A stretch of DNA of 21,692 nucleotides from a virus (Duplodnaviria; Heunggongvirae; Uroviricota; Caudoviricetes), in the IMG/VR virus record IMGVR_UViG_2562617086_000013, one strand, 5' to 3'. A program made the position numbers and the translations under genes. The notes beneath the pieces were generated by a model. That model did no database searches and had not been told where the DNA came from. It was given only the letters and a program-made list of their open reading frames with translations. Of the stretch, positions 19,161-21,692 are shown piece after piece (position 1 is the stretch's first letter; every line of letters begins with the position of its first letter).

Positions 19161-20117
19161 TTATTTTTGAATTGATTTAAACATCCCATCGAGTTGTAAT
19201 TTATTTATGTCGGTTTTCTTTATGGCTTTAATTAAGTTTTCAATAACTTCCAAAGAAAAAATTACATCTTTCTTTTCAATTCTAACCCCCCCGTGGTGGC
19301 TGCAAGCATTAAGGATGTCCTTTGTAATTTCAACATCATTTTTCATTAATGGTTCATAGTCCAGAGCCTCAATAACAGAAACTAAACTACCTAGCATTTG
19401 CTCTTGGTATTGAACGTTGTTTAAATGCATTATACGAATATTAACAAGCATGAGAATATATTCTAAATATCTCCTGGCAGTATTTCCTTTCTCTTGTAAA
19501 GAATCACGATCATATTCCTCAATACTCATGACTTCATTATGTAAAGAGGCTATTTTGTGCTCTGCTAATGAAATATTTATCGCATCCATGAGGTTTCGTG
19601 AGAAGCCTGTAGATGTAACATGACCATTTGCGGGCCTTGTTAAAATACATGTAGTATAGCAATTTATATTTGGGGTCTGGATTGTCTCATTTACTCTTTT
19701 AACCGTTCTATAAACGTCTACCATATAAGAACCTGAGTTTTCAAATGAACATGAAGAGCATTTTGTATTATATATTCTATTTAGAGATAACTGATTGTGA
19801 TAGTATCCCTTTAAGAAAGCATATATAGTGTCATTAAACTCGACAAACACAACGGACTCAATATATATATGGAATTTATCATTGGGGTGCCACTCTAATT
19901 CAAGTCTTCTTGTAGAGTCATCAAAGGAAAAGTTTGAAATAAAATCCCAGTTACCTAAATCTATAAAATCAACGATATTTCTACCTGCACCATGGATATT
20001 TTTATTTATTAAAGTTGTGATTGAGTTTTTTATAATGTCCCAATCATGAATTTCATGATCGAATTTATTATTGATGGTTTCTTTTATTTGATTGGAAAAG
20101 TTTGAATAACTAGTCAC
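19161..20117 (-). CDS. hypothetical protein (318 aa), AT-rich cargo gene between alpha and attR
   Basis: Single uninterrupted ORF, GTG start with a GAGG RBS; markedly AT-rich relative to alpha. No recognisable catalytic motif. Confidence 0.6.
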   Translation of the reverse strand: MTSYSNFSNQIKETINNKFDHEIHDWDIIKNSITTLINKNIHGAGRNIVDFIDLGNWDFISNFSFDDSTRRLELEWHPNDKFHIYIESVVFVEFNDTIYAFLKGYYHNQLSLNRIYNTKCSSCSFENSGSYMVDVYRTVKRVNETIQTPNINCYTTCILTRPANGHVTSTGFSRNLMDAINISLAEHKIASLHNEVMSIEEYDRDSLQEKGNTARRYLEYILMLVNIRIMHLNNVQYQEQMLGSLVSVIEALDYEPLMKNDVEITKDILNACSHHGGVRIEKKDVIFSLEVIENLIKAIKKTDINKLQLDGMFKSIQK

Positions 20118-20647
20118 TTGTTAGCCTCAAAATTAATAATGAGTATTAAAATTTAATTGATATTGTCTATAAAATGTAGCGATGCAATTTTATTGCAACG
20201 AAATGATTTTTACAACATACCATTATCGCTAAACAAAATCGCACCCATCAAATCAACTTACGTTACAATCACTACAAAGCGATTGCATTTAAATTCAAAA
20301 CAGTTTTCTGTTGGGCGCATTTTTTGTTGTACTGGACTAAAGAGAAAAAATGGGGTAAGGAACAAATACCTTCCGTGCTCAAAAATTAGGTTTTTATGCA
20401 CTTATTAATCAGTCAAGGTGAACAGTAAAGTGTTCACTTCTTATCAATCGTTAATTTCATATCTTTTTGAATATTAATGAAAAAAAACACAATGAGTAGT
20501 ATGAACAGTTATCCCCCAAAAAAAGTTTTTTCTGCCTTGAGAATGCGCGGAAAGCGAACGCCTTCACCAATGTGTATAGGGGTGTGTGTAGTTTAAATCT
20601 TCTATTTTAATTTATGTATTAAAATCATTGTGTTGGTGGCGATTATT

Positions 20648-20667
20648 GGTTCCTATTATCGCACCAT
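20648..20667 (+). repeat. degenerate direct repeat of the tRNA-Thr att core; probable attR of the P4-like element
   Basis: GGTTC-CTATTATCG-CACCAT versus attL GGTTCGACTCCTATTATCGGCACCAT (matches ggttc, ctattatcg, caccat). Confidence 0.4.
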
Positions 20668-20792: not shown

Positions 20793-21692
20793 TTAAGCCA
20801 ATTGCTGCCGCCATTCCTTAACGTGGTCAATCAGAGCGCGGAGCTTTGGTGCAATATTGCGACGCTGTGGGAAATACAGATAGAAGCCCGGAAATTGTGG
20901 AAGAAAGTCATCAAGCAGAGATACAAGCTTACCGCTTTCAATATACGGCCTGAAAGTTTCCTGAGTGGCAATTGTTATTCCTCCGCCGGCAAGAGCCAGC
21001 CTCAACATCAGACGCAGATCATTAGTCGTAATCTGCGGTTCAATCGCAAGGTCGAAAGCTCTCCCGTTTTCTTCAAATGGCCAGCGATAAGGCGCAACCT
21101 CCGGGGACTGACGCCAGCCGATACACTTATGATTCACAAGTTCACGCGGATGAACAGGTGTGCTGTTGGCTGCGAGATAGGAGGGAGAGGCAACGACCAT
21201 TTCACGCTGCCTGCCGGTAAGGGGCACAGCAATCATGTCTTTTTCAATGACCTCTCCGAGCCTTACGCCAGCATCGTAACCTGCGGCCACGATATCGAAT
21301 TCCTCATCCGTGACAACAATATCAAGCGTAACGGCTGGATTGGCTGCTGCAAACGAAGCGATTAGCGGACCTGAAAGAAATTCTTCAGCTATTGACGTCA
21401 CCGCGATTCTGAGAAGTCCGCGTGGCACATGGTCAGAAACCATCTCTTCGAACGCTGCCTCAATACCGGATAAAGGTAATGACAGCGATTTATGCAGCCG
21501 TTCTCCCGCTTCTGTCAAATTAACTGAGCGCGTGGTCCGCATTACAAGCATTGTCCCGAATGCATCTTCAAGGCGTCTTATTCCCTGACTGACCGCTGAA
21601 CGGGTAACGCCCAGCCGTGCGGCGGCTTTACTAAAATTACTCTCTTCTGCTACCGCGATAAAAATGGGTAAAAGATTAAGATCGATTTTCAT
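20793..21692 (-). CDS. LysR-family transcriptional regulator (complete; start codon is the last three bases of the window)
   Basis: N-terminal LysR HTH MKIDLNLLPIFIAVAEESNFSKAAARLGVTRSAVSQGIRRLE..; C-terminal substrate-binding domain; about 300 aa. Confidence 0.85.
   Translation of the reverse strand: MKIDLNLLPIFIAVAEESNFSKAAARLGVTRSAVSQGIRRLEDAFGTMLVMRTTRSVNLTEAGERLHKSLSLPLSGIEAAFEEMVSDHVPRGLLRIAVTSIAEEFLSGPLIASFAAANPAVTLDIVVTDEEFDIVAAGYDAGVRLGEVIEKDMIAVPLTGRQREMVVASPSYLAANSTPVHPRELVNHKCIGWRQSPEVAPYRWPFEENGRAFDLAIEPQITTNDLRLMLRLALAGGGITIATQETFRPYIESGKLVSLLDDFLPQFPGFYLYFPQRRNIAPKLRALIDHVKEWRQQLA

Follow-up and report, generated by a model that had tools for sequence, protein, structure and literature searches.

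ECs_0304, a single-gene cargo of the P4-like prophage Sp2 of Escherichia coli O157:H7, encodes a HEPN-fold protein and is a candidate abortive-infection gene

Here, we analyse one gene in a 21,692-nucleotide stretch of DNA (the window), deposited as IMG/VR virus record IMGVR_UViG_2562617086_000013 and 100% identical to Escherichia coli O157:H7 chromosomes. The window contains the element annotated in the Sakai genome as "prophage Sp2, P4-like phage" (window positions ~7764-20650). The gene in question, ECs_0304, is located inside this element, between the alpha primase-helicase gene and the right junction. An earlier note on the sequence had proposed it as an accessory gene for abortive infection, for another single-gene defence or for virulence.

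Results

The gene and its constraint

ECs_0304 (NP_308331.1; RefSeq WP_000205213.1, product "hypothetical protein") occupies positions 19161-20117 on the minus strand and encodes 318 amino acids, with a GTG start codon at 20115-20117 and a stop codon at 19161-19163. The coding sequence (CDS) is supported by open reading frame (ORF) calling, RefSeq annotation, its conserved start and the ratio of nonsynonymous to synonymous substitution rates (dN/dS). A GAGG ribosome-binding site is found 7 nucleotides upstream of the GTG (20125-20128, minus strand), and use of this start is supported because homologues begin at the same position (M-T-x-Y-S...). GC content is 0.313 both in the CDS and in the upstream non-coding DNA (20118-20647), versus 0.522 in alpha. 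The intact, AT-rich ORF (GC 31%) described in the earlier note was thus recovered at exactly its position. Its convergence with alpha was also confirmed, as alpha runs on the plus strand (16695-19028). The "about 650 bp" of AT-rich non-coding DNA said to lie beyond the ORF measures 675 bp between the start codon and yagP, a chromosomal LysR gene whose stop is at 20793.

Comparison of ECs_0304 with an 80%-identical Citrobacter copy gave a dN of 0.134 and a saturated dS, with a dN/dS of ~0.06, indicating that ECs_0304 is not a chance reading frame. Values for other resolvable pairs in the family ranged from 0.10 to 0.24. The ECs_0304 family is under strong purifying selection.

A variable slot between alpha and the att site

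From left to right, Sp2 consists of the integrase gene, an AT-rich accessory block, delta/psu/sid, AlpA, an Icd-like gene, a DUF5375 gene, alpha, ECs_0304 and the right junction. The P4-type alpha gene, with 72% nucleotide identity to P4 alpha, bounds the slot of ECs_0304 on the left and is separated from it by a spacer of 132 bp. A terminator scan located a GC-rich hairpin with a 14-pair stem between the two convergent genes (19031-19061); it corresponds to the P4 alpha terminator (t-alpha), and homology to P4 and to a sister satellite in E. coli LR-03 (L033) reaches rightward to 19056. In reference P4, the interval from alpha to attP holds the alpha terminator, crr and the att arms alone, and the ECs_0304 protein had no match in P4. 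These comparisons uphold the earlier claim that the gene lacks a counterpart in the P4 backbone.

We then compared slot occupancy across related P4-like islands, as the earlier note had proposed. The slot is empty in L033, whose matches to window positions 18810-19056 and 20415-20531 are only 20 bp apart. Because these matches flank a 20-bp gap, the limits of the inserted cargo module can be set at ~19057-20414. This ~1.36-kb module comprises a 3' tail, the CDS and ~300 bp of its own AT-rich upstream DNA with promoter-like hexamers. It is placed between the alpha terminator and the satellite backbone, which resumes at 20415-20531 as judged by homology to L033. By contrast, two sisters at the same thrW/yagP site, 65COLEC (L031) and CH427 (L032), carry a different gene in the alpha-to-att slot (4823-5920 in both). 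It encodes 365 amino acids, is codirectional with alpha, is annotated as hypothetical and was assigned to SIR2 by PADLOC (E = 4e-9), with Pfam SIR2 below threshold. This SIR2-type gene is a candidate for another single-gene defence in the slot. The pig isolate NJS001 carries an ECs_0304 allele identical to that of Sp2. ECs_0304 is therefore cargo. A 2026 survey found 7% of P4 defence systems between the primase gene and an att site (PMC13586616). The earlier placement of defence cargo at the attR end agrees with that survey, but the slot is a minor hotspot rather than the typical one it was taken for.

A HEPN fold with four invariant polar residues

An AlphaFold2 model built with the family alignment (predicted local distance difference test score, pLDDT, 88.6; predicted template modelling score, pTM, 0.84) divides the protein into two domains. 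The C-terminal domain (residues 170-318; 19164-19610, minus strand) is an all-alpha helical bundle that superimposes on solved HEPN domains. The N-terminal domain (residues 1-165; 19623-20117, minus strand) is rich in beta strands and contains near-invariant D50 and D58 in the motif VDFxDxxNWD. It is confidently folded (pLDDT 92.7), and no structural relative was found for it among solved structures.

Only R215, E219, N270 and H274, four residues in all, are unchanged in every one of 60 family members that share ~20% identity. The first two, present in 60/60, belong to the helix A motif E209-K-G-N-T-A-R215-R-Y-L-E219-Y-I-L-M223 (19449-19493, minus strand), which provides the first part of the family signature, GN-x2-R-R-x2-E-x3-K, on helix 204-229. 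The other two (also 60/60), together with S273 (58/60), form the putative active-site motif N270-A-C-S-H274-H-G-G (19287-19310, minus strand) at the C-terminal end of helix 261-273, where the second part of the signature reads N-x-[LC]-S-H-D-[ST]-G. The canonical motif of HEPN proteins, Rx4-6H, commonly takes the form R-N-x3-H, examples being R265-N-S-I-M-H270 of Tha-1 from Staphylococcus phage 80alpha (PMC11087260) and R100/N101/H105 of HepS from the Salmonella prophage Gifsy-1 (PMC13043305). No conserved Rx4-6H motif was found in the ECs_0304 family, which retains N270-x3-H274 alone.

A small family with single-gene mobility

In a word-indexed search, 5.8 billion proteins yielded just 36 clusters; the named ones were all from Enterobacterales or Aeromonas, and none was functionally annotated. 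The family was extended to 152 by an exhaustive hidden Markov model search of 1.84 billion representatives, and a scan of species-representative genomes added one further locus only. Most members have the same two-domain form of ~320 amino acids, those looked up being unnamed metagenomic sequences, and the fused domains in longer members gave no functional hint. None of the HEPN-clan Pfam models was matched by the query or the 60 divergent members, even at E <= 10. PADLOC gave no hit to the query and scattered weak single hits alone among the 60 members, and sequence-profile searches of the PDB with two family alignments (A1 and A2) were empty.

Homologues do not depend on a P4 setting: those in Proteus, Serratia, Pantoea, Citrobacter, Providencia and other E. 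coli islands have no accompanying alpha, psu or sid. No homology was found to a conserved P4 replication or packaging factor, the finding that the earlier note had named as telling against a cargo role. In Proteus and Serratia chromosomes, the homologues stand as lone AT-rich islets. One Pantoea copy is in a lambdoid prophage, and another, on a second contig, adjoins a methylase/HATPase cluster. The Providencia homologue is in an int/AlpA island, the Enterobacter homologue adjoins an ogr-like gene, and the copy on a Citrobacter conjugative element is flanked by an orphan methylase on one side and by ArdC plus a type I restriction-modification system on the other. Another homologue adjoins an MmeI/Eco57I-type enzyme. 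In E. coli GCA_034532695.1 (L011, 11446-16327; also L012, L013 and L027), a 45%-identical homologue directly follows a P4-type integrase gene beside proA.

The surroundings of two of these copies were recorded further. On the Pantoea-like contig SRR32456179_2995 (L010, 1054-7052), the homologue and a 351-amino-acid gene of no assigned function adjoin genes for a DNA cytosine methylase, an HATPase_c_3/HEF_HK protein (1012 amino acids) and a Response_reg_2 protein (631 amino acids), a cluster that looks like a defence-type module. The homologue of L011 is followed by an opposite-strand trio encoding a Y4jQ-family protein (1091 amino acids), a response-regulator-like protein (149 amino acids) and a 387-amino-acid protein of no assigned function, which together may form an uncharacterised defence system within an integrase-borne island.

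The O157 and Citrobacter copies share DNA homology only as far as the ends of the CDS. No conserved partner gene was found, as the neighbours in Pantoea, Serratia, Proteus, E. coli and Citrobacter are mutually unrelated, and the flanks of ECs_0304 contain neither tandem repeats nor Rfam RNAs. These results indicate that the mobile unit is one gene, and the family moves as such among satellites, prophages, conjugative elements and islands. We found no support for an RNA antitoxin or repeat array concealed in the 530 bp upstream of the gene: the region has no tandem repeats and no Rfam match, and other copies do not share homology in their flanks.

The same data bear on the idea that ECs_0304 is an inter-element conflict or addiction factor. 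It would then be a HEPN toxin that serves the mobile element, for example by killing cells that lose it, or by targeting the helper phage or rival satellites, and its neutralising partner would have gone unrecognised. The lack of a conserved neighbour, a flanking repeat array or a known RNA leaves no candidate antitoxin, the lone islets in Proteus and Serratia chromosomes have no element to stabilise, and a helper-specific role fits poorly with the homologues found outside P4 contexts. We thus consider this explanation rather unlikely.

Spread in E. coli and the state of the island

ECs_0304 was found at a nucleotide identity of at least 97% in 307 of 5426 complete E. coli genomes, where it is tightly co-inherited with the Sp2 alpha allele. 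Nearly all 307 copies are at least 99% identical, and among the matches listed almost all are from O157:H7 or O157:H7-like strains. Two records that could mislead counts of pseudogenes or plasmid carriage proved to be assembly artefacts. IMG/VR UViG_2923272612_000005 (L028), which resembles a sister satellite with a divergent, frameshifted copy, holds the same allele (99.2% nucleotide identity), its 13 single-base indels over 4 kb being assembly error. The apparent plasmid-borne 51% homologue on pAR-0428-2 (L036, NZ_CP044147.1) is on an error-laden duplicate contig of Sp2 with identical Sp2 protein accessions. Nor is ECs_0304 the O157:H7 FRIK944 P4 candidate that Rousset et al. found inactive, as that candidate is a separate cytidine-deaminase system made up of two genes.

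The main int-psu hotspot of Sp2 (9129-12404) contains a Lamassu system, recognised by PADLOC, in fragments. LmuA is split into two ORFs (9129-9545 and 9518-10135, covering profile positions 10-140 and 141-333), and LmuB into three (10586-11218, 11249-11638 and 11838-12404, covering positions 3-199, 230-329 and 428-608 of 610); LmuC (10135-10593) is apparently whole. RefSeq labels the pieces as "ABC-three component system" proteins, "AAA family ATPase" or "hypothetical". This cargo appears decayed, and ECs_0304 is the only Sp2 cargo that looks intact.

Could ECs_0304 then be a silent or functionless passenger in O157:H7, AT-rich, horizontally acquired, unexpressed and clonally inherited? The visible fragmentation of Lamassu, the other cargo, implies that the Sp2 island is decaying, and the intactness of the 307 copies says little because they are essentially one clone. 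The accession and locus tag of ECs_0304 are absent from the searchable literature, in which no expression or phenotype record was found, and the promoter-like sites upstream of the gene (20251-20142) were not above chance. Set against these points, the ORF has stayed intact with a good ribosome-binding site while the neighbouring Lamassu decayed, purifying selection is strong family-wide and the module carries ~300 bp of its own upstream DNA. A silent passenger is, in our judgement, very unlikely.

The junction of Sp2 and the DNA to its left

The right junction of Sp2 carries the att core GGTTCCTATTATCGCACCA (20648-20666, plus strand), which is derived from the 3' end of thrW (tRNA-Thr) and occurs once in the window against 0.01 expected. 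The match of island-free E. coli genomes starts at ~20651, where tRNA-Thr is annotated. Since these genomes match from ~20651 and the Sakai Sp2 feature ends at window position 20650, the thrW core is the true junction. The att repeat that the earlier note placed in the non-coding stretch is likely a 22-nucleotide direct repeat (20569-20590, plus strand; partner at 6579-6600). The repeat does exist, but its reading as att was revised in favour of the thrW-derived core, and it is more likely an arm-type site of the integrase than the att core.

An inverted pair of motifs resembling P4 type-1 iterons, TGTTCAC(C) (TGTTCACC / TGTTCACT), is located at 20417-20438, the position of crr in P4, within the stretch homologous to L033. 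Motifs like TGTTCACC occur at chance frequency across the whole window, and the proposal that P4 crr iterons lie upstream of ECs_0304 was rejected. A crr function for the one inverted pair in the backbone-homologous stretch is a possibility.

The left-hand partner of the 22-nucleotide repeat is at the start of an ORF (6580-7386) that carries no RefSeq annotation. Near its start, this ORF encodes the conserved N-terminus of a second P4-type integrase (..RAKPEAKAYTFGDGLGLSLLI), which is apparently truncated, and it is followed by an "integrase core domain" remnant of insertion sequence type (7023-7457, minus strand). The arrangement suggests that 6579-7457 is left over from a further element that integrates at thrW, in tandem with Sp2. 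Left of Sp2, window positions 1-6500 hold what is left of a lambdoid prophage: its replication gene is frameshifted, and it also carries tail-fibre genes with the pinE invertase gene, a GIY-YIG gene of LEM-3-like type and an AT-rich gene for an AraC-family regulator. The window therefore spans two tandem degraded elements.

Discussion

We infer, with confidence that is about evenly balanced, that ECs_0304 encodes a free-standing HEPN ribonuclease that is triggered by phage and brings about abortive infection. In the mechanism that we propose, the N-terminal beta-sheet domain would sense a phage-derived trigger or hold the enzyme off, as experiments have established for Tha and HepS. The C-terminal domain would be a metal-independent ribonuclease. 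Its putative active site would combine N270/H274 at one helix end with R215/E219 on another helix, R215 compensating for the missing canonical arginine; judging from other HEPN enzymes, dimerisation would complete the site across the interface. Upon infection by a competing phage, a phage component would release the nuclease, which would cut cellular or phage RNA (tRNA, rRNA or mRNA). The infected cell would be halted, and the clonal population and the satellite would be protected. The defence-linked neighbours of homologues (restriction-modification, methylase, Y4jQ-family and MmeI/Eco57I-type genes) are counted in favour of a defence function. For the virulence role that had been named as another option, nothing was found in its favour.

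Several observations weigh against a ribonuclease acting in defence. The canonical HEPN arginine is found at position 269 in none of the 60 members, the residue being A, L, S or T, and arginine mutants of canonical HEPN ribonucleases are inactive (PMC8266594); catalysis would therefore have to rely on the putative substitution by R215. The N-terminal domain falls only slightly short of the HEPN domain in conservation and so lacks a clear arms-race signature. No model in Pfam, PADLOC, NCBIfam or PHROG recognises the query or the 60 divergent members. We also rejected ECs_0304 as a remote relative of RnlA/LsoA or Tha-1: hhalign of A2 with K-12 RnlA gave a probability of 0.5%, BLASTP with it gave nothing, and hhalign of A1 and A2 with Tha-1 (80alpha orf3) gave 0.2%. 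In addition to the silence of the literature, the AT-rich gene may be silenced in its host. Finally, one homologue context adjoins anti-restriction genes and fits counter-defence too.

This last context, the ArdC neighbourhood, and the missing arginine both favour a different function, in which ECs_0304 would be a counter-defence (anti-restriction or anti-immunity) or regulatory protein whose HEPN-like bundle binds a nucleotide or a protein and does not cut RNA. Two points weigh against it: four invariant polar residues (R, E, N and H) of exactly the types that HEPN ribonucleases employ are kept at ~20% identity, and in sister elements the slot is occupied by a SIR2-type effector. We regard this alternative as unlikely.

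A more ambitious version of the abortive-infection reading, which we offer tentatively and regard as doubtful, is that ECs_0304 is the founding member of a family of single-protein immune nucleases not described before. Here, a structurally new beta-sheet sensor would gate a HEPN domain whose lost RNxxxH arginine is re-supplied from another helix by R215/E219, making the HEPN active site a solution of its own kind, and the protein would give O157:H7 resistance to particular phages. Single-protein HEPN defence borne by mobile elements in a satellite hotspot is already known, and so is the slot. The novelty lies in the family, which is absent from every curated library searched, in an N-terminal domain with no solved structural relative and in a HEPN site without its defining arginine.

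ECs_0304 offers a natural test of how a HEPN active site may depart from Rx4-6H and keep its function. If the abortive-infection reading is true, a heavily studied food-borne pathogen carries an unrecognised anti-phage gene from a family missed by current defence-finding tools, and the N-terminal domain becomes a new candidate phage-sensing module. The gene would also serve as a case study of the primase-to-att hotspot of P4 satellites, which has been little studied, and could affect the choice of phages for biocontrol of O157:H7. Should the HEPN domain instead be non-catalytic, ECs_0304 still marks a conserved mobile-element protein.

Like the cargo described for the P4 primase-to-att hotspot (PMC13586616), ECs_0304 is located between alpha and att, varies in its occupancy among related elements and has an AT-rich, foreign composition. 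It differs in not being recognised by PADLOC, and such surveys would therefore count it as non-defence or unannotated.

With RnlA and LsoA (PMC8266594), the protein shares one or more beta-sheet domains before a C-terminal HEPN domain and an origin in prophages or other mobile elements. It also shares a split tetrad, in which an upstream Arg/Glu pair is combined with an N/R..H motif. RnlA activity needs R255 and E258 on an upstream helix plus R318 and H323, the motif being at the C-terminal end of a HEPN helix (PMC8266594); the corresponding residues of ECs_0304, with a putative catalytic role, are R215/E219 and N270/H274. Unlike in those systems, neither rnlB/lsoB nor any other conserved neighbour was found in any context of an ECs_0304 homologue, and the likeness to RnlA is one of architecture and chemistry only.

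Tha-1 (tail-activated HEPN), the product of 80alpha orf3, is a ribonuclease of 301 amino acids that is triggered by a phage protein and has an unassigned N-terminal half and a C-terminal HEPN domain (PMC11087260). The Tha family and ECs_0304 share an N-terminal region of ~165 amino acids before a C-terminal HEPN domain in a single protein borne by a mobile element. However, Tha-1 has the canonical R265-N-x3-H270, whereas ECs_0304 has L269-N270-x3-H274 plus the distal invariant R215/E219. The N-terminal domain of Tha-1 is poorly predicted, in contrast to the confidently folded one of ECs_0304; the host of Tha-1 is Gram-positive and that of ECs_0304 Gram-negative; and an overlapping inhibitor gene such as ith is not conserved at ECs_0304.

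HepS (HEPN Solo) acts by abortive infection and keeps itself inhibited until it is bound by a phage tail protein (PMC13043305). It is prophage-borne and free-standing without a partner gene, as ECs_0304 is, but has fewer than 250 amino acids, a canonical R100-x4-H105 motif and no extra domain, whereas ECs_0304 adds a 165-residue domain and has a non-canonical site. Tha-1 and HepS provide the precedent for prophage-borne defence by a single HEPN protein (PMC11087260, PMC13043305).
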